From contig CAZCMP010000004.1 of assembly GCA_964500005.1 (NCBI GenBank), positions 97,816 through 161,815 of the forward strand: DNA of 64,000 bases. Direction: 5' to 3'. Positions 6,756 through 63,912 of this stretch are shown in pieces. The position numbers and the translations under genes were made by a program. Below the pieces are notes generated by a model. The model had not been told where the DNA came from. It saw only the letters and a list, made by a program, of their open reading frames with translations, and searched no databases. Origin of the DNA: an uncultured Thermococci archaeon. GTDB lineage: Archaea > Methanobacteriota_B > Thermococci > Methanofastidiosales > Methanofastidiosaceae. Position 1 is the stretch's first letter. Each line of letters opens with the position of its first letter.

Positions 6756-6980
6756 CTACCTATAATATTCAAATTCTTCCTGTGTTAGCCCAGAATCTTT
6801 TATTATTCTCATTAATGTACCTTTCTTCAGTTCTTCGTGTAGTGGCACTGTAATCTTGATAAGTCCATTTTCACCTACTTTTTCAAGTCGGACATGTGAG
6901 CCTTTTTGCCTTACCACAATAAATCCTGCTCTCTTCAAAATTTTAATTACGTCCAAGCCAGAAAGAACAGCAGAGCTCAT
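6756..6980 (-). CDS. hicA: HicA family toxin
   Basis: GFIVVRQKGSHVRL...VPLHEELKKGTLMRIIK. Confidence 0.9.
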   Translation of the reverse strand: MSSAVLSGLDVIKILKRAGFIVVRQKGSHVRLEKVGENGLIKITVPLHEELKKGTLMRIIKDSGLTQEEFEYYR

Positions 6981-7177
6981 ATGGCCACTTCGAGCCTTTC
7001 TCCGGGATACTCCATAAGCTCATTTATGTCTGGCTCTAGGTAAAGCTCTATAGCTTCTCTTATATTATCCAAGGCTTCAGCTTTAGTTTCCCCTTGGGAG
7101 ATGCATCCCGGGAGTGAAGGAACATAAACAGTGAAACCTCCCTCCTCTTGGAGCTCCAAAACTACTGTTAGTTTCAT
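6977..7177 (-). CDS. hicB: HicB family antitoxin (short form)
   Basis: EEGGFTVYVPSLPGCISQGETKAEALDNIREAIELYLE; 4-nt overlap with hicA. Confidence 0.9.
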   Translation of the reverse strand: MKLTVVLELQEEGGFTVYVPSLPGCISQGETKAEALDNIREAIELYLEPDINELMEYPGERLEVAI

Positions 7178-7245: not shown

Positions 7246-7368
7246 AATAAGAAAAGAAAAAAATAAATTTATTCTTTGTCTTTGTTTCCGAGCCCGAACT
7301 TCTTCATGATCCAGTCCATTGGGAGCGATTTCTTTGTTTCACAAACGACGTCAAGGTTGGCAAGGTAG
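7246..7368. repeat. Dispersed direct repeat, copy 1 of 2 (other copy from 16058)
   Basis: 33 nt identical (7246-7278 = 16058-16090), then about 90 nt of high similarity. Confidence 0.9.
7269..7367 (-). pseudogene. 3' remnant (32 codons) of a beta-propeller surface-protein paralog
   Basis: Translates to YLANLDVVCETKKSLPMDWIMKKFGLGNKDKE*, nearly identical to the C-terminus of 16081-17172. Confidence 0.85.
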
Positions 7369-8483
7369 TGCAAGTGGATGGACTAAGTGGGGAGCAGTAC
7401 AACGTTTTCATACCCAATCCACTTCCCCCAAAGATAGAATTTGATGATGATCTCGTGCTCGTTTTGTCAAAGGCGGAAGAGAAACTTGGTAAACTATCCG
7501 GAGTAGGCCTTACCCTTCCAAGCCCCAATCTCCTTATTGTGCCTTATCTAAGAAAAGAGGCTATAATGAGCACCAGGATAGAGGGGACAAGGATCTCCCT
7601 GCAAGAAGTGTTGCTGTCTGAAGCAAAAGAGAAGGAAGAGAAAACAAAAGATGCACAAGAGGTCATAAATTACATAAACACTGTTAATTATGCCCTAACT
7701 AAAATCGAAAATTCCCCCATCAATCTGGATCTGATAAAGGGCATGCATAAGGTTTTAATGGAAGATGTTAGGGGAAATGAAAAGGCGCCTGGAGAATTTA
7801 GGGAAGTCCAGAACTGGATTGGGTCTGAATTTTCCAAGGTTTCAGACGCCATTTTTGTCCCTCCAAATCCAGAAGCTGTCCCTAAATTAATGGAAGATCT
7901 AATCGATTATCTTAACACAGAGCATAATGTTCCGGTTCTTGTCAGGTGCGCATTGATGCATTACCAGTTTGAAACCGTCCATCCCTTCTGTGACGGTAAT
8001 GGCAGGATAGGGAGAAGCCTGATAACGGTCTACCTATGCAAGAAAAAGAAGATAATAAAACCCCTTTTGTACATCAGTGAGTTTTTTGAAAAGCACAGAA
8101 TGGAATACAATGAACTCTTTTTGAGGACCGGCCAAACAGGTAAATTTGAGAGCTGGATTAAGTTTTTCTTGAAAGCTATTGAAGTCCAATCCGAGGACGC
8201 ATTGTTAAGGGCGCATAAACTTTTGGAGCTAAGGGAAGCTTACAGAAAGAGGGTCCAGAGCGAAGCGCAGTCTAGTGACATTCTAAACATAATCGATTAC
8301 TTGTTTTCAAATCCGTTTATTACGGTCAAGAAGGCCCAACTGATCACAGGTGTTACATATCCAACGGCGAAGAAGTATATGGAAAAATTAGCTAAATATG
8401 AAATCTTAAAAGAAACAAAGCGCCTGCAAAGAGAAAAAACATTTGTGGCCCACGAGATTTACGAGATAATCAAGGATATCTAA
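7368..8483 (+). CDS. Fic family protein (class II with C-terminal wHTH), possibly 5'-truncated
   Basis: Fic motif HPFCDGNGRIGR; inhibitory helix STRIEG; FIPNPLPP N-terminus. Confidence 0.9.
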   Translation: MQVDGLSGEQYNVFIPNPLPPKIEFDDDLVLVLSKAEEKLGKLSGVGLTLPSPNLLIVPYLRKEAIMSTRIEGTRISLQEVLLSEAKEKEEKTKDAQEVINYINTVNYALTKIENSPINLDLIKGMHKVLMEDVRGNEKAPGEFREVQNWIGSEFSKVSDAIFVPPNPEAVPKLMEDLIDYLNTEHNVPVLVRCALMHYQFETVHPFCDGNGRIGRSLITVYLCKKKKIIKPLLYISEFFEKHRMEYNELFLRTGQTGKFESWIKFFLKAIEVQSEDALLRAHKLLELREAYRKRVQSEAQSSDILNIIDYLFSNPFITVKKAQLITGVTYPTAKKYMEKLAKYEILKETKRLQREKTFVAHEIYEIIKDI

Positions 8484-8520
8484 AGCTCATAGAGGATAAA
8501 AATAAAAAAATATGGATTTA

Positions 8521-9408
8521 TTAAATCCATTGTTCAACTAAGTCTCTGTTGTTGTCTACCCACTCTCTGGCTATTTCTGCTGGATCTCTGCCTTTGTCAC
8601 TGTATTCGAGTATCCATTCGCTCTGTGTGTCTTCTGTTACCTGAAACTTCTCAAAGAATGCATAAGCTTCTGGAAAGTCATCTTTGAATCCCTTTCTAAC
8701 AATGGTATATACGACATCTCCGTCACCATATACCTTTTGTGGATCATCGAGCTTTTGTATGTCAAATCTTGCAAACGCAGAATGTGGTTCCCATATTGTA
8801 AATACTATCCATTCGTCATTTAATGTCGCTGCATCTACTTCGGCAATCATTGCTGGAGTGCTACTTGCTTTAAGTGTGTATCCATTTAGGCCATAAGCAT
8901 CTATTGCTTTGCCTGTATTGATCATTATTCCTGCGCCTGGTTCGATTCCAACTATTCTTCCTTTAAACTCTGTTTCTTTTCCAATCAAGTCTGTTATGGA
9001 TGTCACACCGCTATCGTATACATATGTTGGGACGGCAAGCCCCAGCCAAGTTCCAGGAACATTTATATTAACCAATTCAAGATTATTTTGATGAATATTC
9101 CAGTATTCTTGATGAGTTGCAGGTAGCCATCCAGCCAATAAAGCATCGATATTGCCTTCTGCCATTTCAGCATAGACTATTCCTGCATCTAGTTGATTTG
9201 TCTCAACTTTGTAACCCATATCTTCTAGTATTACCTTGGCAACTTCTGTTTTTACAGTTACTCCAGGCCAAGGCGGAAGTCCAAAACTTATTGTTCCTTT
9301 GTCTGTCTTTGTTTCTTCAACTTGCCCGGTACAGCCTGTATTTAGCACAACTAAAGATACTAAAATTATTGTGCCTATACAAATTAGATTTTTTTTAGAA
9401 TTTATCAC
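8521..9408 (-). CDS. proX: Glycine betaine ABC transporter substrate-binding lipoprotein
   Basis: Lipobox LNTGC; WLPATH, GIEPGAG, WEPHSAF; GGAGGTGA SD before GTG 9408. Confidence 0.9.
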   Translation of the reverse strand: MINSKKNLICIGTIILVSLVVLNTGCTGQVEETKTDKGTISFGLPPWPGVTVKTEVAKVILEDMGYKVETNQLDAGIVYAEMAEGNIDALLAGWLPATHQEYWNIHQNNLELVNINVPGTWLGLAVPTYVYDSGVTSITDLIGKETEFKGRIVGIEPGAGIMINTGKAIDAYGLNGYTLKASSTPAMIAEVDAATLNDEWIVFTIWEPHSAFARFDIQKLDDPQKVYGDGDVVYTIVRKGFKDDFPEAYAFFEKFQVTEDTQSEWILEYSDKGRDPAEIAREWVDNNRDLVEQWI

Positions 9409-9522
9409 TAATTTCACCTCCAAATTTAGCGATTAATAATAAAAAAATTTTAACCATATAAAAGGTTAATGGATTATTATAAGAGCAAAACTTTTTTAAC
9501 TTAATTTAAAATATTAATAGTA

Positions 9523-9942
9523 ATGTCTAGAAAAATTACATATAGTGTTAAGAAAAATGTGCCTATCACAGAATTAAACTATACAATTCACAAGTTAGAA
9601 GGGCAAGTAAGACTCTTACAGAGGTTGTATTTTATTAGATTTTTATACAAGGGCATGGGAGTAGAAGATGCCTCAGAACTTATCGGAATTACCAAGAATA
9701 CTGGTTATCATTGGCTTAAAAAGTGGAATGAAAGCGGGCAGGAGCAGTTGATACCTAATTTCAGAGGGGGTCGACATCCTAAAATTAGTAAATCTGATAA
9801 GGACGAGTTAAGGGGGATAATAAGGGACCTAGGATTAAACAAGGCTAGAGATGTCCAAAAATTGATTCAAGAAAAATATAACATTACATATTCTTTATGG
9901 CAAGTTAGAAGAATATTAAATTCATTTGAGAAAAATGAATAA
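9523..9942 (+). mobile_element. IS630-family transposase OrfA-like HTH protein; no DDE domain present
   Basis: RLYFIRFLYKG..VEDASELIGITKNTGYHWLKKWNESG...FRGGRHPK..IQEKYNITYSLWQVRRIL, like methanogen IS630 N-terminal domains. Confidence 0.75.
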
Positions 9943-9946
9943 AAAA

Positions 9947-10792
9947 TTAGTTTTTCTTTGTATCGTAGATTTTTCCAAGTTGTTTTGTTATCCTATCTAG
10001 TATAATTGCCAAAAACACAATAGACAGTCCCGCTTCTATGGAATCTACCAAATTGTACCGTTGTAGTCCCGATATAATGACTTCTCCGAGCCCTCCTGCT
10101 CCAATAAATCCTGCTATTACAACCATAGAAAAGGCTAACATTATAGTCTGATTTATCCCCATCATAATGGAAGGCAGTGCAAGAGGAACCTCTATTTTAA
10201 GAAGTAGTTGGCGAGATGTCGCCCCAAATGCTTTTCCAACTTCAATCATTTCCTTAGAAACATGCTCAAGACCTAAACTTGTTAATCTTATAGCCGGTGG
10301 CATTGAAAATATGACTGTGGCAATAACCCCTGGAACGACGCCTATTCTAAAAAATAGTACTGCCGGTATGAGGTATGATAAGGATGGAAGTGTTTGCATC
10401 AAATCAAGTATTGGTTCTATTATTGTAGCAAAAGTTTTTGATCTCGCTTTCAATATTCCTAAGGGCACCCCGATAAAAAGTGCAATAATTGTAGCCACCA
10501 AAACTAAAGACAGTGTTTCTAGTGTGGCGTTCCATAAATCCATGCTAATAATCAGGACCAAACTAATAAAGGCAAATATTGCCACTTTGATCTTTGCCGT
10601 TTTCCAGGATATTAGCGCAAATATTGCAATTAGCACTATTGGCGGTATAAAGACGAGGGCTGAATAAAAGAACTCAACAACTGCGGATATTATTGACCTT
10701 ATTATCTCGAAAATAATTGAGAAATTTTCTCTCAAGAAGTTAATAATACTAACTATTGGCTCCCCTATTGGTATTTGTGGAATCTCAATTAT
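9947..10792 (-). CDS. proW: Glycine betaine ABC transporter permease (start probably ATA 10792; ORF track uses GTG 10801)
   Basis: PILDLMQTLPSLSYLIP, EAA-like EVGKAFGA, PSIMMGINQTIMLAFSMVVIA. Confidence 0.92.
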   Translation of the reverse strand: MIEIPQIPIGEPIVSIINFLRENFSIIFEIIRSIISAVVEFFYSALVFIPPIVLIAIFALISWKTAKIKVAIFAFISLVLIISMDLWNATLETLSLVLVATIIALFIGVPLGILKARSKTFATIIEPILDLMQTLPSLSYLIPAVLFFRIGVVPGVIATVIFSMPPAIRLTSLGLEHVSKEMIEVGKAFGATSRQLLLKIEVPLALPSIMMGINQTIMLAFSMVVIAGFIGAGGLGEVIISGLQRYNLVDSIEAGLSIVFLAIILDRITKQLGKIYDTKKN

Positions 10793-11978
10793 GTGAATCA
10801 CCCCTTAGAATATCTATTGCAGCCTTCTCATTTGCATGCCCCAAAAGAACCCCTTCTTCGTCAACAACAGGTATGGTCGTTTTAGAGGTAATTAACAAGG
10901 GCAAAGCTTGTGCAAGAGTGACAACACTTTCTACAGAATTACATTTTTTGATGAATTTTTCAACTCTTACATTTTTTCCAGACTTTTCCGCCTCTAGTTC
11001 GGATAAAAAAATAATCCCCAAAAGTTTTTGGGCTTCGTCTACAACGAAAGAGTAAGTTACCCTATTCTTTTTTAATTTATTTATTGCGTCTACTGCCTTA
11101 ATATCCGGGGTAAGTACCACCCTATTTTGTTTTGTTATATAATCAACTTTTATTACATGATGTCTATCAACATTTTGCACAAATGTTTTAACAAACTCTG
11201 TTGCAGGATTAACTAGAATATTCTCAACTGTATCAATCTGGACAAGGACCCCTTCTTCGTTTAAAATTGCAACTCTGTTGCCCAGTTTTACTGCTTCGTT
11301 TAGATCGTGAGTTATAAAGATTATAGTTTTTTTCATCTTTCTTTGAATTCTTAATAATTCCTCTTGCATATTATCTCTTATCAAAGGATCTAATGCGCTA
11401 AAAGGTTCATCCATTAGAAGAATATCCGGGTCAATAGCTAAGGCTCTAGCAAGCCCAACTCGCTGCTTCATTCCCCCACTAAGTTCATCGGGCATGCTAT
11501 TTTCCCAACCTGCAAGCCCTACTGTTTTTAATATTTTCTTACCGGTATTCTCCATATTCTCTTTAGGAACTCCTTGGATTTCAAGGCCCAAAACAACATT
11601 ATCGAGAATAGATCTGTGTGGTAGGAGGCCAAATCTCTGAAAAACCATTCCAAATTTCTTTCGCCTCAATTCAATCAATTCATTTTGATTAAGATTTAGA
11701 ATGTTTATTTTTTCGTTTCCAATTAGTACTTCACCCTTTGTAGGGAGTATCAAACGATTAATACATCTTATAAGTGTTGATTTGCCACTCCCTGAAAGGC
11801 CCATTATGACAAATATTTCTCCTTTATTGATTTCAAGATTTATATCTCTTAAGGCAACAACTTGCCCTGTTTTCTCTTTTATTTGGTTTCTAGTTAAACC
11901 CTTCTCAATCAACGGAAAAGCTTTCTCTGGGTTTTTACCAAATATCATATATAAATTGCTAATTTTTACATCCAACAT
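10785..11978 (-). CDS. proV: Glycine betaine ABC transporter ATPase with CBS domains
   Basis: GLSGSGKS, LSGGMKQR, LLMDEPFSALDP, FITHD, C-terminal CBS pair. Confidence 0.95.
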   Translation of the reverse strand: MLDVKISNLYMIFGKNPEKAFPLIEKGLTRNQIKEKTGQVVALRDINLEINKGEIFVIMGLSGSGKSTLIRCINRLILPTKGEVLIGNEKINILNLNQNELIELRRKKFGMVFQRFGLLPHRSILDNVVLGLEIQGVPKENMENTGKKILKTVGLAGWENSMPDELSGGMKQRVGLARALAIDPDILLMDEPFSALDPLIRDNMQEELLRIQRKMKKTIIFITHDLNEAVKLGNRVAILNEEGVLVQIDTVENILVNPATEFVKTFVQNVDRHHVIKVDYITKQNRVVLTPDIKAVDAINKLKKNRVTYSFVVDEAQKLLGIIFLSELEAEKSGKNVRVEKFIKKCNSVESVVTLAQALPLLITSKTTIPVVDEEGVLLGHANEKAAIDILRGDSHN

Positions 11979-12222
11979 TTTATCGCCAAAAAATCAAAAT
12001 ATTATTAGTATTCAATAATAAAAAAATTTAGGGAGCCTTTAAATAAGTTTCGATTTTTGACTTACAATGATTATTAATTTTAATTTTTATAAATTAAATA
12101 TTATCTATTGATATATTATATGAAAATAATATTATAAATTTAAATATATTGTATATATGAAAAAATTTAGCAACGTCCGTAATTTATTTATATTGATATG
12201 TAATCAATGGGCTGGTGATTAT

Positions 12223-12528
12223 ATGGGATTTGTACAGGAATTTATGGATTTTTTAAAAGAGTACAAAGTTATAGGGCTTGCTGTAGCATTTATTATGGCG
12301 ACAGCCTCTACAACGCTTGTTAAATCTTTTGTAGACGATATTGTTATGCCCATCGTCTCACCCTTCATACCTGGTGGGGATTGGCAGACGGCCGTTATCA
12401 ACATTGGCCCAATCGCAATTAAAGCGGGCTCTTTCTTAGCACAGATTATCAACTTTGTCATATTGGCGATTGTGGTCTTTGTAATTGCAAAGAAGGTCTT
12501 GAAGGAAGAAAAGGTAGCAAAGAAGTAA
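12223..12528 (+). CDS. mscL: Large-conductance mechanosensitive channel
   Basis: EFMDFLKEYKVIGLAVAFIMA..VKSFVDDIVMP..GSFLAQIINFVI; SD GGTGAT before ATG 12223. Confidence 0.9.
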   Translation: MGFVQEFMDFLKEYKVIGLAVAFIMATASTTLVKSFVDDIVMPIVSPFIPGGDWQTAVINIGPIAIKAGSFLAQIINFVILAIVVFVIAKKVLKEEKVAKK

Positions 12529-12680
12529 TTCTCTAATTTATTTAATTTATTAAAAATATTTCACTTTTTTTAATACAAGCAAATCAAATTTTATCTATTA
12601 TAAATTCGCAAAAGACTTTTATAGAACTAATTATTAATAAAGAAAAAGTCGTAGTTAATTCAATTACTTGAAATGATAAA

Positions 12681-13187
12681 ATGTCTAGCCTAGATAATCT
12701 CAATATATATTCAACAGAAGATCTCCTCGTCACCTCTCTTAAAAGTGAGATTGATAGCAGGGCGGCCTACCTTAAAATAAAGGATTCTGTAAAAAACGCC
12801 GTATTAAAGGACAAGATGGATTTTTTGGCAAGGGAAGAGGATAAGCACAGAACATTTTTTGAAACGGTATATCATAATAAATATCCGAACAAAGCTATCA
12901 AACTCCCAGACAAAACACCTGTGCCGCTTCCAGAAATAAGGATAGGGGATGAGAATATCGAGATTAGTGAAGTTTTGGGCCAGGCCATGGATGCAGAGAT
13001 TGCAGCTCACGACTTTTATCTAAAAGTATTAGATAGGTTCAAGGATGAGAAGGACATCTTCAATATGCTAAGATACATAGCAGATATGGAGATGGGGCAC
13101 TACAGGCTTTTGGAGATTGAAAAAGAGAACTCGCTAAAGTTTGAAGATTATGATGATTTCTGGCCCATGATGCATGCTGGCCCTTGA
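12681..13187 (+). CDS. Ferritin-like / rubrerythrin-family protein without rubredoxin domain
   Basis: SEIDS..Y, EEDKH, AEIAAHDFY, EMGH diiron motifs. Confidence 0.85.
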   Translation: MSSLDNLNIYSTEDLLVTSLKSEIDSRAAYLKIKDSVKNAVLKDKMDFLAREEDKHRTFFETVYHNKYPNKAIKLPDKTPVPLPEIRIGDENIEISEVLGQAMDAEIAAHDFYLKVLDRFKDEKDIFNMLRYIADMEMGHYRLLEIEKENSLKFEDYDDFWPMMHAGP

Positions 13188-13226
13188 TGATAATATTTAC
13201 TTTAAAAAAATAAAGGAGGAAGAAAA

Positions 13227-13388
13227 ATGTACAAATATGTTTGCTCAGTTTGTGGATACATCTACAACCCTGCGGAAGGAGACCCTGATGGGGATATACC
13301 TCCAGGCACACCTTTTGAAAAACTTCCAGACGATTGGACATGCCCAGTGTGTGGCGCAAGTAAGAGCCAGTTCGAAAAGCAGGATTGA
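13227..13388 (+). CDS. Rubredoxin (53 aa, below the ORF-track cutoff)
   Basis: [53 protein letters not shown]; GGAGG SD. Confidence 0.97.
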
Positions 13389-13392
13389 TTAA

Positions 13393-14574
13393 ATGAGCCC
13401 AAGAGTTATTAAAGACGGGATATACTGGACCGGATTTATTGATTGGGATAGAAGGCTCTTTGATTCACTAATCCCAACACCACATGGCACTACCTACAAC
13501 TCATACCTGATAAAAGGTAGTGAAAAGACGATGCTAATTGACACTTCAGACTTTGGAAAAGAAGAGAATCTGCTGAATGCTTTAGATATGGCCGGAATAA
13601 AAAGGATAGACTATATTGTATCAAACCATGCGGAGCAGGACCACTCTGGATCCCTGCCAAAGATTTTAGAAAGGTATCCAGAAGCAAAAATCGTTACAAA
13701 TGCCAAGTGCAAGGATTTGCTCGAGTCTTTTCTACCAATCCCTGAAGAAAGATTCATCGTTGTAAATGACAACGAAGAAATCTCTCTTGGCGATAAGACC
13801 GCCCAGTTCTTGATTGCACCTTGGGTGCACTGGCCTGACACGATGCTCACATACTTAAAAGAGGACAAGGTTCTTTTTTCATGTGACTTTTTGGGATCCC
13901 ACTTTTCAACAAGTGAGCTATTTGTTACTGATGAGAATGAGATTTACCTTTCGGCAAAAAGGTACTACGCAGAGATAATGATGCCTTTCAGGACAATGGC
14001 AAAAAAGCATCTTGAAAGGATAGAAAAGTTGGATATCGAGATAATTGCCCCAAGCCACGGCCCGCTATATGATAAACCTTCGTTTATTATTGATGCGTAC
14101 AAGGATTGGACAGGCGATTTGGTCAAAAATCAAGTTATTATACCCTACGTTTCGATGCATGGGAGCACAAAGGCGATGGTCGACCACCTATCAGATGCTT
14201 TGGTAAAGAGGGGAATTGAAGTAAAACTATTCAATCTTGAGATAGCTGATGCAGGAGAGCTTTTGATGTCTTTAGTTGATGCTGCAACTATTGTCATTGG
14301 CGCTTCAACAATGCTTGTTGGACCACATCCGCTTGCATACTATGCGACATACCTTGTGAATGCGGTAAGACCAAAAACAAAATTTGTTTCTATAATCGGA
14401 TCCTTTGGATGGGGCGGGAACGCTGTTGAAACTTTAAAGGGATTGATATCAAACATCAAGGTAGAGCTAATCGAACCTGTCTATATCAAAGGATACCCAA
14501 AAGATTCAGATTTCAAAGCTTTAGAAACGTTGGCAGATGAGATAGCTAATAAGCATAAAGAGTTAGGGTTATGA
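13393..14574 (+). CDS. fprA: Flavodiiron protein (FprA type)
   Basis: GTTYNSYLI, NHAEQDHSG, HWPD, SCDFLGSH, PSHGP, flavodoxin domain YVSMHGST. Confidence 0.95.
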   Translation: MSPRVIKDGIYWTGFIDWDRRLFDSLIPTPHGTTYNSYLIKGSEKTMLIDTSDFGKEENLLNALDMAGIKRIDYIVSNHAEQDHSGSLPKILERYPEAKIVTNAKCKDLLESFLPIPEERFIVVNDNEEISLGDKTAQFLIAPWVHWPDTMLTYLKEDKVLFSCDFLGSHFSTSELFVTDENEIYLSAKRYYAEIMMPFRTMAKKHLERIEKLDIEIIAPSHGPLYDKPSFIIDAYKDWTGDLVKNQVIIPYVSMHGSTKAMVDHLSDALVKRGIEVKLFNLEIADAGELLMSLVDAATIVIGASTMLVGPHPLAYYATYLVNAVRPKTKFVSIIGSFGWGGNAVETLKGLISNIKVELIEPVYIKGYPKDSDFKALETLADEIANKHKELGL

Positions 14575-14597
14575 TTATATAATATAATGGTGAGGAT

Positions 14598-15095
14598 ATG
14601 AAAGAAAAAACTAAGAAAAATTTGATGGAAGCCTTTTCTGGTGAGTCACAGGCAAACAGGAAGTATCTTGCATTTGCAATGAAAGCAGAGCAAGAGGGTT
14701 ACCCCGGAGTTGCGAAACTGTTTAAGGCTGCTGCTGCAGCTGAAACTGTCCACGCACATGCTCACCTTAAAGCCTTAGACGGCATTAATACGACAGAGGA
14801 AAATCTAAAGGAAGCAATCTCGGGTGAGACGCATGAGTTTGTAAGCATGTACCCCAAGATGATAGATGAGGCAAAAGCAGAAGGGGAAAAGGCTGCCGAG
14901 AGATCATTTGTTTTTGCAAATGAAGTGGAAAAGATTCACGCCGGGCTATACAAAAAAGCCCTTGACAATATGGATAACTTTCCAGAAAAAGACTACTATA
15001 TCTGCAGTGTCTGCGGTTACACAGTTGCTGACGCAGCCCCTGAGAAATGCCCAGTTTGCGGGGCATTGAAAAAGGCCTTTAACAAAGTAGATTAA
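14598..15095 (+). CDS. rbr: Rubrerythrin
   Basis: AFSGESQANRKY, ETVHA, GETHE, EKIH, CSVCG...CPVCG. Confidence 0.95.
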   Translation: MKEKTKKNLMEAFSGESQANRKYLAFAMKAEQEGYPGVAKLFKAAAAAETVHAHAHLKALDGINTTEENLKEAISGETHEFVSMYPKMIDEAKAEGEKAAERSFVFANEVEKIHAGLYKKALDNMDNFPEKDYYICSVCGYTVADAAPEKCPVCGALKKAFNKVD

Positions 15096-15130
15096 TCTAC
15101 TTTATTTTTATATTAAAATCCAGTTAAATC

Positions 15131-15640
15131 TTAGTGAATGGAATTTTTTGCCATCTGCTCTTCAAGGGACTCAAGTTTTAGTCTTATATCCTCTTTTTCC
15201 GTCCTTACAGCAATCAAAGAATAGAGGCCTTTTATCCCTTTTATCGGGCCAATTTTTTCTACCTCTAGGTTTCTAAGCTCCTCGTTGTCTGTAACTTTGG
15301 TCTTCACAAGGATGTCCCACTCCCCAGATATTTCGTGGACTTCAAGCAGCTCATCTATCATTGATAGCTCCTTTGAAATCCTCCCAATGTCCTTAATGCT
15401 TTCAATTGAGATTCTTATCCAGGCTGTTGTGAGTTTGCCGCATTTTTTTGCGTCTAGCAAAGGGACTATGCCTTTGATGATGCCTACCTGCCTTAATCTT
15501 CTCGTTCTATCATAAACTGTGGACTCTGCCGCACCTATCTTCTTTGACAGGTCTTTATAGGAGACTGTCGCATCGTTTTGAAGCTCAGTCAAAATATCTT
15601 TATCCAGATCATCCAACTTAATCGGGGGTTCTGTAGCCAT
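15131..15640 (-). CDS. Lrp/AsnC family transcriptional regulator
   Basis: LDDLDKDILTELQNDA HTH; VHEISGEWDILVK. Confidence 0.9.
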   Translation of the reverse strand: MATEPPIKLDDLDKDILTELQNDATVSYKDLSKKIGAAESTVYDRTRRLRQVGIIKGIVPLLDAKKCGKLTTAWIRISIESIKDIGRISKELSMIDELLEVHEISGEWDILVKTKVTDNEELRNLEVEKIGPIKGIKGLYSLIAVRTEKEDIRLKLESLEEQMAKNSIH

Positions 15641-15758
15641 TTTACCACTAAAATCCTTTTGTATTAATTATTAATTATAAATTTAAATATTTTTCGGATA
15701 AAATTTATTTAAAAGAGGTTTCTTTGTAAGAAAAATAGCTTGATTTTTGCCAGAGAAG

Positions 15759-16034
15759 TTATTTGTGCACCCAGCTTAATACCTCAGATACTAAGAATTT
15801 AAGTTCAGAAGATTTTTTCAAGATACTTGTGGGTTTATGCTTCCAAAGGATGGAAATAAAGAATATCCCTAGTATGGCGTAATGTGTGGCAACTCTTAGT
15901 TTACGGGATTTAGTCTTGGAGTAGAACTTAGAGAGGTTATGCATTGCGTTCATTGTAAGCCTAGTTCCAATGCTAATTTTTGAGGATCCGCTCATTAGTT
16001 TCAACTTTTGAAGGTTATATCTATCTAGAGTCAA
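15759..16034 (-). other. Doubtful 91-codon ORF, possibly a decayed transposase fragment
   Basis: Open frame in an otherwise AT-rich intergenic region; KTKSRKLRVATHYAILGIFFISILW is loosely reminiscent of IS4/ISH3 C-termini. Confidence 0.2.
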
Positions 16035-16057
16035 AGTAGCATATAAAATTAATCATT

Positions 16058-16178
16058 AATAAGAAAAGAAAAAAATAAATTTATTCTTTGTTGCCAAGAC
16101 CGAATTTCTTCATGATCCAATTCATTGGGAGTGACTTCTTTGCTGTTTCACAAACGACATCAAGGTTTGCAAGGTAGA
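16058..16178. repeat. Dispersed direct repeat, copy 2 of 2 (other copy 7246-7368); end approximate
   Basis: Shares the stop codon, downstream U-rich terminator and last ~32 codons. Confidence 0.9.
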
Positions 16179-17172
16179 TGTCCCAGTTGCCGTTTCTTTC
16201 GTCACGCCAAACTACCCGATTGCAATATATCTTTGGATCCTCTTGTTTAAATGGGTATGTAGATATATCGAAAAATTCTCCAGCCCTTATATTGTAGCCT
16301 CTGATGTTCCATTTATCCTCGCCAACAGGATCTTCTTGCCAGACGACTATGTCACCGTATATTGCTGGCTTGTATCGTATAACTGAATCATCCGGGGGTA
16401 TATCAAAATAAACTCCAGTCCTTAGGTTCTTGCCTCTGACGTTCCATTCCTCGACGTCATTAGGATCTTGTCGCCAGACGACTATGTCACCGTATATGGC
16501 TGGTTCCTCTTCTTTAAATTGGCCTGTAGCTATATCGTAATAGACTCCAGTCCTTATATTGTAGCCTCTGATGTCCCATTTCTGATCGTCATCAGGCCAT
16601 TCCTGCCAGACGACTATGTCACCGTATATTTTTGGACGCTCTTGATTAAATGGATCTGTAGCTATATCGTAATAAACTCCAGTCCTTATATTGTAGCCTC
16701 TAATATTCCAGTCTCCCCCGCCATCTGGATCTTCTTGCCAGACGACTATGTCACCGTATATTGCCGGCCAGTATCGTCTAACTGGAGGATCACCTGAAGG
16801 TATATCAAAAGGTATATCAAAATAAGCTCCTGTCCTTAGGTTCTTGCCTCTGACGTTCCATTCCTGCTTGTCATCAGGATCTTGTCGCCAGACTACTATG
16901 TCGCCGTATATGGATGGTTCCTCTTCTTTAAATGTTTCTGTAGCTATATCGTAATAAACTCCAGTCCTTATATTGTAGCCTCTGATGTTCCATTTGTTGG
17001 CGTCAGACTCTTCTTGCCAGACGACTATGTCACCGTATATTGCCGGATTTACAATCGAATAATCCGAATCTGTTATCCTCTGTTCGCTCAAGACCCTTGT
17101 CCCCATAACTGCTGAAACAGTGGCAAATGCCAAGACAAAAATAATTAATAATGATTTTAGATATTTTTTCAT
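16081..17172 (-). CDS. Secreted beta-propeller repeat (TolB-like/methanogen surface) protein
   Basis: Signal peptide MKKYLKSLLIIFVLAFATVSA; about 7 PAIYGDIVVW blades; final WRDERNGNWDIY. Confidence 0.88.
   Translation of the reverse strand: MKKYLKSLLIIFVLAFATVSAVMGTRVLSEQRITDSDYSIVNPAIYGDIVVWQEESDANKWNIRGYNIRTGVYYDIATETFKEEEPSIYGDIVVWRQDPDDKQEWNVRGKNLRTGAYFDIPFDIPSGDPPVRRYWPAIYGDIVVWQEDPDGGGDWNIRGYNIRTGVYYDIATDPFNQERPKIYGDIVVWQEWPDDDQKWDIRGYNIRTGVYYDIATGQFKEEEPAIYGDIVVWRQDPNDVEEWNVRGKNLRTGVYFDIPPDDSVIRYKPAIYGDIVVWQEDPVGEDKWNIRGYNIRAGEFFDISTYPFKQEDPKIYCNRVVWRDERNGNWDIYLANLDVVCETAKKSLPMNWIMKKFGLGNKE
16342..17040. repeat. Six intragenic copies of gac(g/t)actatgtc(a/g)ccgtatat, spaced 129-150 nt (propeller blades)
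   Basis: Copies at about 16342, 16477, 16609, 16741, 16891 and 17020; all spacings are multiples of 3. Confidence 0.9.
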
Positions 17173-17309
17173 AGTTATCACTCTTAATAATTGTAATAAA
17201 ACTGATTTTTGGGAATATAAGTGTTTCGCCTAAATAGACTAAGGCGTTTTCCCTAAATTTAAATCCAAAATCTTGCATAAGACTCTAAATTAAAAATATT
17301 AAAAGTAGG

Positions 17310-17384
17310 GGCCGGGGCCGAGATTTGAACCCGAGTCATGGGATCCACAGTCCCATAGGATAACCATGCTACCCCACCCCGGCC
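17310..17384 (-). tRNA. tRNA-His (GTG) with encoded G-1
   Basis: G-GCCGGGG/CCCCGGC-C acceptor, TGGGA-CTGTGGA-TCCCA anticodon arm, TTCAAAT T-loop. Confidence 0.95.
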
Positions 17385-62523: not shown

Positions 62524-63912
62524 ATGATTAAGAAATCCCTGATGCTCCTCATCGCAAATTCATTTTCTAGAGTTGCAAATTATATGTTTACTCTATTCAC
62601 TGCAAACATACTTCTCCTTACCGAATACGGCCTTCTTTCGGCGATTATGCCTTTTCAGTCATTGATACTTGTCCTTTCATCATTTGGTATTGCTCCTTCT
62701 GTATCAAGATTCACATCAATTTACGATGCAGAAGACAAAAAAGATAAAATCTCATCTTCTCTGTTCTTTGTTCCTATTGGGATTCTCCTTTTCCTTTTTC
62801 TCTTCGTCCTTTTACCTGTGATAAGGGGCTTTTACTCAGTAGACATAAGGGATGGTATTGATACGCCACTAAAGGTAATACTTCTCGTAATACCTCTTGG
62901 GATTTTATTTTCTGTATTTACTGGAATCTTGCTTGGTATCAAAAAAGTAAATTATATGGCAGTATCGATATTTGCTCTATCATTATCTTATTTTTTACTT
63001 TCAATCCCCCTTTCATATGCCTTTAGAGTATCAGGTGCCTCGGCTGCCCTTGTAGGGGGGTATGTAATTGGTATAATAGTTTCATTTTATCTTATTTTAA
63101 AGAGCGGTATAAAATTGAGGTTGAAAAGAGAGAACTATAATGAATTTAAGAAAATATTTTCATTTGCAATCCCTGTTTCAATATTCTCATTAAGCCTTGT
63201 TCTGCTCTTCAATGCAGATATATACATCCTAGCCCACTTTTTTGGTCCAAAGACCGTTGGGATTTATGGAATGGCCTCCCCCACTGCAGGGATCATACCC
63301 TCATTTGCAATAGCTCTTTCCGCGGTTTTGTTGCCAGAGCTATCAAAACTAAAATCAATAGAAAAGGATGGAATAAAGAGTATTTTAGTATCACTTAAAG
63401 CCTCCTTCAATATTACCTTCCCAGTTGCACTTTCTCTTTTTGCTTTTTCAAGCCCAATCATATACTTCCTTTTTGGGGTCCAAGAAGGGGGATGGGTGCT
63501 AAAACTACTATCAATTGGAATGCTATTTTATTCGATATTCTACATATACTCAACTTCTCTCCAAGCGATGGGTAAACAATGGACTCCAATGAAGATAACA
63601 GTTCTTATAGCCACCATAAATGTGGCGCTTAACTATATACTCATACCGAAGTATGAAATAAATGGTGCGGCCTTTGCAACTATGATTTCTTGTATAATTG
63701 GAACGATATTAATAGTGAAAAGCTTAAGGTTAATATTTGTTCCAGAAAAAAAGTTTGTTTTATTATCAATCTTTATTTTTGTATTGATGATGGGTTTTGA
63801 AAGTATCGTAGGATTATTCCCATCAAGAGTTCTCAATCTATTAGTATATGGCGGGTTTGGAATGCCCTTACTTTTAGGTTATTTTTACTATCTTAAGAAA
63901 AAGTGGAAATAA
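62524..63912 (+). CDS. Flippase / polysaccharide biosynthesis (MOP/RfbX) transporter
   Basis: About 12-14 TM helices; EYG, VGIYG, NVALNYILIPKYEINGAAFAT. Confidence 0.88.
   Translation: MIKKSLMLLIANSFSRVANYMFTLFTANILLLTEYGLLSAIMPFQSLILVLSSFGIAPSVSRFTSIYDAEDKKDKISSSLFFVPIGILLFLFLFVLLPVIRGFYSVDIRDGIDTPLKVILLVIPLGILFSVFTGILLGIKKVNYMAVSIFALSLSYFLLSIPLSYAFRVSGASAALVGGYVIGIIVSFYLILKSGIKLRLKRENYNEFKKIFSFAIPVSIFSLSLVLLFNADIYILAHFFGPKTVGIYGMASPTAGIIPSFAIALSAVLLPELSKLKSIEKDGIKSILVSLKASFNITFPVALSLFAFSSPIIYFLFGVQEGGWVLKLLSIGMLFYSIFYIYSTSLQAMGKQWTPMKITVLIATINVALNYILIPKYEINGAAFATMISCIIGTILIVKSLRLIFVPEKKFVLLSIFIFVLMMGFESIVGLFPSRVLNLLVYGGFGMPLLLGYFYYLKKKWK

Follow-up and report, generated by a model that had tools for sequence, protein, structure and literature searches.

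A lineage-specific C-terminal tag on unrelated exported proteins of "Candidatus Methanofastidiosum," with a possible role in surface retention

We analyzed a 64,000-nucleotide stretch of DNA (referred to here as the window) from an uncultured Thermococci archaeon of the Methanofastidiosales (positions 97,816 to 161,815 of contig CAZCMP010000004.1, assembly GCA_964500005.1), with the focus on an exported beta-propeller protein that ends in a short, conserved C-terminal tag. The window has a GC content of 37%, is archaeal, and is collinear over ∼6 kb with contigs of Methanofastidiosum metagenome-assembled genomes (MAGs) at ∼80% nucleotide identity. The propeller gene lies between a tRNA-His gene (17308..17383), the only feature recovered by an Rfam search around it, and an Lrp/AsnC gene. 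A regular-expression search of all six frames found the tag motif twice in the window, in the propeller gene and in a remnant of a second copy. The features concerned are the following:

16081..17181, minus strand: propeller gene, an open reading frame (ORF) of 366 residues encoding an exported seven-bladed beta-propeller with the C-terminal tag
17101..17181, minus strand: signal peptide, approximately residues 1 to 27, (V)ITMKKYLKSLLIIFVLAFATVSAVMG (hydropathy maximum; helix 4-25 in the AlphaFold2 [AF2] model)
16084..16140, minus strand: tag, K348 to E366, KKSLPMNWIMKKFGLGNKE (profile scan, positional profile, and a short AF2 helix at 353-359 with a predicted local distance difference test score [pLDDT] of ∼70)
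16058..16080, minus strand: T-rich post-stop stretch ATTTATTTTTTTCTTTTCTTATT, directly 3' of the propeller stop codon
7269..7368, minus strand: 3' remnant of a lost propeller paralog, YLANLDVVCETKKSLPMDWIMKKFGLGNKDKE followed by a stop
7246..7268, minus strand: T-rich post-stop copy, identical to 16058..16080 at 23/23 positions

Anaerobic digesters and sludge are the origin of the public sequencing runs that contain the propeller gene. The gene is covered in part by metatranscriptome contigs at ≥99% identity, one of which (window positions 15836..16203) spans the stop codon and the T-run into the downstream spacer.

The propeller protein ends in ...CETAKKSLPMNWIMKKFGLGNKE. Minus-strand positions 16084..16149 translate to ETAKKSLPMNWIMKKFGLGNKE, with a TAA stop at 16081..16083, and six-frame translation confirmed the coordinates and strings that an earlier model-generated note, made without database searches (the sequence-only reading), had given for this motif. 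That reading also described a secreted-type protein with no transmembrane (TM) segment, PGF-CTERM signal, or lipobox, and our analyses bore this out. Kyte-Doolittle hydropathy over 19 residues (KD19) reached 2.29 at the N terminus, was ≤0.61 elsewhere, and was −0.81 over the last 19 residues; the KD19 scan found no C-terminal TM segment. The only cysteines of the protein are residues 320 and 344, and there is no lipobox because the signal peptide contains no Cys. Pfam returned nothing above threshold, and no PGF-CTERM or other sorting model of NCBIfam was matched. The NCBIfam model TIGR04275 (beta_prop_Msarc) matched in seven repeats (179.9 bits versus a cutoff of 85). The AF2 model, based on a 38-sequence alignment, shows a seven-bladed propeller up to residue 340 (mean pLDDT, 90), and the top Foldseek matches in the PDB were TolB and acylaminoacyl-peptidase-type propellers. 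Residues 341 to 366 are modeled at pLDDT 71/69/57, with short helices at 345-348 and 353-359 (MNWIMKK); packing of the tag against the propeller was judged from the pLDDT and secondary structure of this model. The DVVCET strand and Cys344 preceding the tag are conserved and propeller specific. Other tagged families have no Cys there, indicating that the conserved Cys (CET) belongs to the propeller and not to the tag.

The tag proved to be a modular, lineage-specific, C-terminal element that is nearly restricted to proteins with signal peptides and is not part of the propeller fold. A tail-only profile run at full HMMER sensitivity against 1.84 billion representative proteins (E ≤ 1e-3) gave 24 matches, of which 21 were genuine, all at the extreme C terminus of proteins of ≤340 residues. 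The other three (P0125, P0126, and P0139) were judged spurious, being repetitive or low-complexity repeat proteins. P0125 is a 1,285-residue NB-ARC-like cytoplasmic protein in which seven repeats resembling tetratricopeptide repeats (TPRs) (SLPLDWAMTQNNLGNAL) sum to 71 bits. We rejected the idea that the tag is itself a TPR-type repeat: it is a single copy of ∼15 residues that ends exported proteins, not a tandem 34-residue helix-turn-helix, and we judged the likeness of P0125 to be convergence of a helix-forming pattern and not homology. Among the 120 best homologs of the whole propeller protein, the tail occurred only in a small subfamily (P0001, P0002, P0005, P0007, P0012, P0015, P0021, and P0022), and a word-indexed search with the 45-residue tail gave three matches, including P0123, which is not a propeller.

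We also read loci from a scan of GTDB genomes and from a metagenome scan in six frames for tagged ORFs. Together with the protein profile scan, this placed the tag on at least seven unrelated exported families: the TIGR04275 propellers; a PQQ/BamB-like propeller of 416 to 421 residues and an SBBP-like propeller (both assigned with Pfam/NCBIfam); a ∼200-residue Cys-rich family, a ∼150-residue family with an F[KR]A[VL]xPGT motif, and a 258-residue family, each without a Pfam/NCBIfam match; and a lamin-tail-like family beginning ...VVINEVNFD, which was labeled by eye from this motif and matched no model. Tagged genes are often consecutive, with five in locus L033, three in L018, and pairs in L002, L004, L007, and L010, and a single 87.7-kb contig carries nine. 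All genome matches in the GTDB scan were to "Ca. Methanofastidiosum" or "uncultured Thermococci archaeon" MAGs. A lone contig from a Cloacimonadota bin is 98.6% identical to a Methanofastidiosum-type contig and was evidently mis-binned. A signal-peptide-like N terminus, of the MKK-plus-hydrophobic type, was present in 41/44 distinct full-length tagged ORFs, compared with 16/190 untagged ORFs from the same DNA (Fisher p = 6e-29). Two of the three tagged ORFs that lack one at their start (L007 and L036) are possibly truncated, and the third (L038) is an overextended call with a signal-peptide-like stretch inside. The sequence-only reading had suggested a lineage-specific tag and a check for its enrichment among signal-peptide proteins, and both points hold. 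It had also named the contrary case, a motif confined to two paralogs and packed into the propeller, which does not agree with the presence of the tail on unrelated families.

No Pfam or NCBIfam C-terminal model was matched at E ≤ 1 by 11 tagged proteins, and a search of PDB sequences with the tag profile gave 0 matches. A literature search combining Methanofastidiosum or Methanofastidiosa with "signal peptide" or "S-layer" returned no title or abstract on the subject. The tag thus appears to have been undescribed so far, and no Pfam, NCBIfam, PDB, or Rfam entry covers it.

The tag core reads K-[SA]-L-P-M-[DN]-x-[IF]-[ML]-K-x-[FL]-G-[LF]-G and is followed by a charged end. We compiled a positional profile from 41 distinct tags, numbered from the invariant Pro at 0. 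Upstream of the Pro are K or R at −3 (76%), S, A, or P at −2, and L at −1. Downstream are M or I at +1; D, N, E, or Q at +2; a variable position at +3 (W in 26/41, otherwise Q, K, or R); I or F at +4; M or L at +5; K at +6 (39/41); K, I, or F at +7; F or L at +8; G at +9 (33/41); L or F at +10; and G or N at +11. Another 2 to 5 residues follow, mostly charged, and the protein ends 13 to 16 residues past the Pro, with 3 to 6 of these residues charged. All tags are net cationic, and positions +1, +4, +5, and +8 are invariably hydrophobic. Some of these invariances were partly forced by the search patterns, but many instances that were found as neighbors of pattern matches still fit the profile. 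An extended variant, ...LP[IM]D[RQ][FI][LT][KN]IL[NE][EK]NRCKNHPDAEGC[KE]VN, has a two-Cys loop after the tag and at least 10 extra residues (L002, 6723..7988; L031/L029, 2879..3397; L021; and P0122), and therefore the tag need not be at the extreme C terminus.

The tag is kept by purifying selection on the peptide, and its synonymous sites are near saturation. Across 23 DNA versions encoding LPM[DN]WI[MLI]KKFGLG, synonymous divergence (pS) was 0.62 and nonsynonymous divergence (pN) was 0.03, and the counts of variable sites for the first, second, and third codon positions were 3, 0, and 11. The contrast between pS and pN and the third-position variation imply that the peptide and not the DNA is conserved and that the similarity does not stem from recent copying. 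In one tagged family (family 3), the passenger domain is only 41 to 61% identical and has many indels, and the tag is almost invariant and the most conserved part of the protein. A low-confidence AF2 model of this family (pLDDT 65) has a short helix at 131-137 after the last strand. In both of the unrelated folds that were modeled, the last strand is thus followed by the tag as a short helix, predicted with less confidence than the domain itself.

The remnant copy retains the tag end without a protein body or a signal peptide, and the sequence-only reading was right to call it a remnant paralog. Its description of the changes as mostly synonymous was also correct: over 30 codons aligned with the propeller gene there are nine synonymous third-position changes and one replacement (an N-to-D codon), together with two in-frame indels (−3 and +6 nucleotides). 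The two window copies differ by 11 substitutions, 10/11 of them at the third codon position. The exact identity of the 23 post-stop nucleotides contrasts with these 11 differing sites in the coding part. In other families and species, tagged genes are likewise followed by double T-runs, and T-runs of this kind come after every tagged gene in the other loci. The T-rich stretch is probably an oligo-T transcription terminator that travels with the tag. RNA-library contigs other than the one noted above join the 34 nucleotides common to both copies (16058..16091) to the remnant flank; the remnant locus is apparently present in RNA libraries, although DNA carry-over is possible.

The surroundings of the remnant include two further features:

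7368..8483, plus strand: Fic/DOC family gene abutting the 5' edge of the remnant (Pfam Fic_N and Fic)
6756..7177, minus strand: HicA/HicB toxin-antitoxin pair just downstream of the remnant (Pfam HicA_toxin, 2e-19; HicB_lk_antitox, 8e-11)

Propeller homology of the remnant stops at ∼7368, and homology to the Fic locus of L002 starts at 7357; from there on, the window is 87% identical in nucleotide sequence to the Fic genes that closely follow tagged genes in L001, L002, and L018. Most simply read, a second tagged propeller gene was reduced to its final 32 codons by a rearrangement in which the Fic gene took part. In L001, L002, and L018 the Fic gene is convergent with and 0.37 kb downstream of the tagged genes; the window, with Fic and then the tail, shows this order in circularly permuted form. 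The L002 Fic-locus homology ends 11 nucleotides upstream of the GTG start at 7368. We considered whether the two window copies might be att-type direct repeats of an integrated element at 7374..16080 and rejected this idea, as the interval holds housekeeping-type genes and no integrase and the copies differ with codon periodicity.

The contents of this interval are OpuAC, MscL-like, rubrerythrin, rubredoxin, FprA, and Lrp genes. Several were identified by eye from their translations:

12157..12528: MscL-like gene
12681..15095: oxidative-stress cluster between the tag copies, made up of a rubrerythrin-like protein and the three listed next
13227..13388: rubredoxin
13393..14574: FprA-type flavo-diiron protein
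14598..15095: rubrerythrin

The OpuAC glycine-betaine-binding protein (8521..9423, minus strand) has a signal peptide with a lipobox-like end, ...VVLNTGC, suggesting that this organism probably also uses lipoprotein-type anchoring.

Tagged genes appear to be gained and lost as units. A gene that is absent from L002 is bounded exactly, in L018, by two tag-coding repeats, and we therefore infer that homologous recombination between tags removes (or adds) tagged genes in their entirety. Two other Methanofastidiosum MAGs (L013, 4926..6218; L011, 5565..6218) have a tagged propeller gene inserted between genes that are adjacent in the window (∼63906..63911), and in L011 it has collapsed to a 61-residue ORF. 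Given these different genomic sites in related species, the propeller gene behaves as a movable cassette, and the tag-coding repeats appear to drive the gain and loss of tagged genes. The L011/L013 propeller initially seemed to be flanked by 95-nucleotide direct repeats; this was rejected because the two blast matches represent the two halves of one junction, unbroken in the window. Neighbors of tagged genes include RtcA/RtcB-like, molybdopterin, beta-CASP, and toxin-antitoxin genes, and toxin-antitoxin-type genes (Fic, HicAB, MazE, and HepT/MNT) repeatedly adjoin tagged genes. L018 (2845..4456), for example, has a tagged propeller gene, a tagged family 2 gene, and Fic, and L002 (8727..9432) has a tagged propeller gene and Fic.

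Other TIGR04275 homologs carry different ends at the position of the tag, including a TM helix with a basic tail, PEP-CTERM-like ends, dockerin-like modules, Zn-ribbons, and PKD domains. Four Methanofastidiosia propellers (P0062, P0076, P0103, and P0142) end in CCSLPIRILSTEY, a TM helix, and KKEE. SLP[IM]xxI[LM] is common to this SLPIRIL-plus-TM tail and the tag, a hint that a TM anchor may be the source or the equivalent of the tag. The idea that the tail of P0062, P0076, and P0103 is a modular ancestor was set aside: a search with it gave only one more propeller protein, and the resemblance remains no more than suggestive. Another subfamily of nine homologs (P0032, P0040, P0060, P0061, P0065, P0088, P0094, P0112, and P0119) shares a different conserved tail that lacks a TM segment, ...KPLSPVSNAYxSGLNLISQLLRLK, possibly another such tag that is used in other archaea.

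On balance, we think that the tag probably serves in surface retention or localization, a role suggested by the kinds of proteins that carry it and by its composition. In the mechanism that we propose, "Ca. Methanofastidiosum" would mark a definite part of its Sec-exported soluble proteins with an address tag of ∼19 residues, among them beta-propellers of several kinds, lamin-tail-like domains, and small beta-sandwich domains that contain Cys. After export and cleavage of the signal peptide, the tag would fold as one short capped helix, with Ser/Ala-Leu-Pro as the N-terminal cap, M-D-x-I-M-K-x-F as the helix, and Gly as its terminator. The soluble domain would then be held at the cell surface by the lysines on either side and by the hydrophobic face (+1, +4, +5, +8, and usually Trp at +3). 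Retention is suggested by the fact that the tagged proteins are exported and otherwise soluble and that homologous propellers have membrane anchors or wall- or polymer-attachment modules at the same position. It is also suggested by the net cationic character of the tag and its invariant hydrophobic stripe, usually with Trp at +3, and by the three Methanofastidiosia propellers whose SLPIRIL, TM, and KKEE end begins like the tag (this tail itself not being modular). One possible way of holding on, which we suggest tentatively, is that the helix attaches peripherally to the anionic cytoplasmic membrane on its outer face, by analogy with the C-terminal helix of E. coli PBP5 or the short MinD membrane-targeting sequence; a close alternative, which we consider rather unlikely, is that it docks on a surface receptor common to the tagged proteins.

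Several observations weigh against retention by such a helix. The helix predicted by AF2 is only ∼7 to 9 residues long, and the hydrophobic moment of the WIMKKFGLG form is 0.35, no better than shuffles of its own residues (z ∼0.5); the KIL forms score higher (0.45 to 0.72; z, 1.3 to 2.2). The sequence-only reading had placed M/I/M/F on one helix face, which stands as a pattern, the four positions always being hydrophobic, although the amphipathicity of this variant is modest. D (+2), K (+6), and G (+9 and +11) are kept more strictly than lipid binding usually calls for, suggesting that a protein (a receptor or an enzyme) reads the tag. Co-resident variants have Gln, Lys, or Arg in place of Trp at +3. 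An anchor that is weak and monomeric would also come off the cell exterior unless there were an enclosing layer or the proteins oligomerized. In the neighborhoods examined, we found no conserved partner gene or sortase-like enzyme next to tagged genes, including the co-occurring membrane enzyme that the sequence-only reading had suggested looking for. From its proposal of a membrane-binding or processing tag, what survives is a lineage-specific modular tag on secreted proteins; the amphipathicity of WIMKKFGLG is statistically unremarkable, and no membrane enzyme was found beside the tagged genes in these neighborhoods.

The tightness of the motif gives some room to readings in which a protein recognizes the tag. 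Under one of them, the tag would be the recognition element of a novel archaeal surface-sorting system that works without a TM segment, where a dedicated Methanofastidiosum receptor or enzyme reads LPMDx[IF][ML]Kx[FL]G on exported proteins and fixes them covalently or noncovalently to the envelope. We regard this as unlikely, although if true it would amount to a new class of C-terminal sorting signals and mark out a "tagged exoproteome." Narrower still is a sortase- or archaeosortase-type signal, in which an enzyme would read LPMD...K..FG, remove the tail, and link the protein covalently to a lipid or wall polymer. The very tight retention of a short motif under saturated synonymous change would fit such processing, as would the relatives with SLPI, a TM helix, and KKEE at the same position, and many unrelated signal-peptide targets per genome are the genomic signature of PEP-CTERM and PGF-CTERM (PMC6098224). 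The defining TM segment is absent, however, with 13 to 16 residues after the Pro, 3 to 6 of them charged, and a KD19 of −0.81. The NCBIfam and Pfam sorting models are unmatched, a candidate enzyme occurs in none of the neighborhoods, the SLPI-plus-TM tail is confined to one propeller subfamily, and the extended variant runs at least 10 residues beyond the tag with its Cys loop, all of which makes this signal type distinctly doubtful. The tag could instead serve assembly, its helix binding a common partner or other tags and gathering modules into an extracellular complex, as dockerins or the cargo helices of microcompartments and encapsulins do. Hydrophobic residues at i, i+3, i+4, and i+7, helix caps, and invariant D, K, and G are typical of linear motifs that bind as a helix in a groove, and the tagged genes are clustered, with passengers that are binding-type domains (propellers, lamin-tail domains, and small beta-sandwiches). 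Yet neither a receptor nor a conserved untagged neighbor was found in the neighborhoods, variants as divergent as WIMKKFGLG, KFMKFFGLG, and QILKILKDN in one array would have to share one site, and known targeting peptides of this type are cytoplasmic whereas the tagged proteins are exported; we consider assembly improbable.

Two further explanations were considered. Conservation might act on the DNA, with the tag-coding stretch and T-rich tail forming a recombination or terminator cassette that carries the peptide as a passenger. The 23 post-stop nucleotides that are identical between the window copies and similar across families, the recombination between tag repeats (L002 versus L018), and the different genomic places of tagged genes in related species are in line with such a cassette. 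It does not account for variable sites distributed 3/0/11 over the codon positions, or for a pS of 0.62 and in-frame indels with an unchanged peptide, which are expected only from selection on the protein, and Rfam has no matching family here; this explanation is very improbable. Least probable, to the point of being negligible, is that the tail does no more than complete the propeller structure and is common to two paralogs only. Although the conserved, propeller-specific DVVCET strand and Cys344 directly precede it, AF2 shows a separate, lower-confidence helix after the last blade, and the profile scan and six-frame reading of loci refuted the idea by finding the same tail on at least six other unrelated folds.

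Methanofastidiosum, an uncultured methanogen, is common in anaerobic digesters, and the tag, if its role is surface retention, would be a handle on the cell envelope. To our knowledge, the established archaeal retention routes (TM anchors, the lipobox, and archaeosortase signals) all use a hydrophobic segment or a lipid, and a sharply conserved tag without a TM segment, common to unrelated exported proteins, would add another. The tag would also list the displayed proteins, which are mostly propellers and small binding domains, suggesting a set of surface binders, and as a portable 19-residue element it is a potential surface-display module.

The closest comparison in proposed function is with the exported low-molecular-weight penicillin-binding proteins of Escherichia coli, in which a C-terminal 18-residue amphipathic helix tethers PBP5 to the outer face of the inner membrane (PMC2909392). 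Like PBP5/DacA, PBP6, and PBP4, the tagged proteins consist of a Sec-exported soluble domain followed directly by a C-terminal helix (a predicted one in the tag) with no TM segment, and the tail is cationic and hydrophobic and ends in aromatic or Gly residues, as in PBP5-type anchors. The predicted tag helix is shorter (∼7 to 9 versus 18 residues), and the tag is a sharp motif common to unrelated families, whereas the PBP tails are conserved in pattern and not shared in this way. There is no sequence similarity and no homology between them, and the comparison is one of putative function. The membrane-targeting sequences of MinD and FtsA are C-terminal cationic amphipathic helices of 8 to 12 residues (KK..F/L..K..FG(G)) that bind membranes reversibly. 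Unlike the exported tagged proteins, MinD and FtsA act on the cytoplasmic face and need dimerization or polymerization for avidity.

In its genomic behavior, the tag resembles the PGF-CTERM and PEP-CTERM signals of archaeosortase and exosortase systems, which are likewise short motifs near the C terminus of unrelated signal-peptide proteins in one lineage, with multiple targets per genome and a charged extreme C terminus (PMC6098224). It differs from them in lacking the obligatory hydrophobic TM helix, in having a motif other than PGF, PEP, or PEF, in matching none of the models, and in having no sortase-like gene nearby. Because there is no TM helix and no model match, the tag should not be filed as an archaeosortase-, exosortase-, or sortase-type signal, despite this similar behavior. 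Like the sortase LPXTG signal, it begins with Leu-Pro and is C-terminal on signal-peptide proteins, but it reads LPM[DN]W and has neither Thr-Gly nor a TM segment; we know of no archaeal wall acceptor in the Methanofastidiosum lineage. The TIGR04275 family, finally, has been described for its repeat only, and among the many C-terminal modules of its members, the tag is one that had not been described before.

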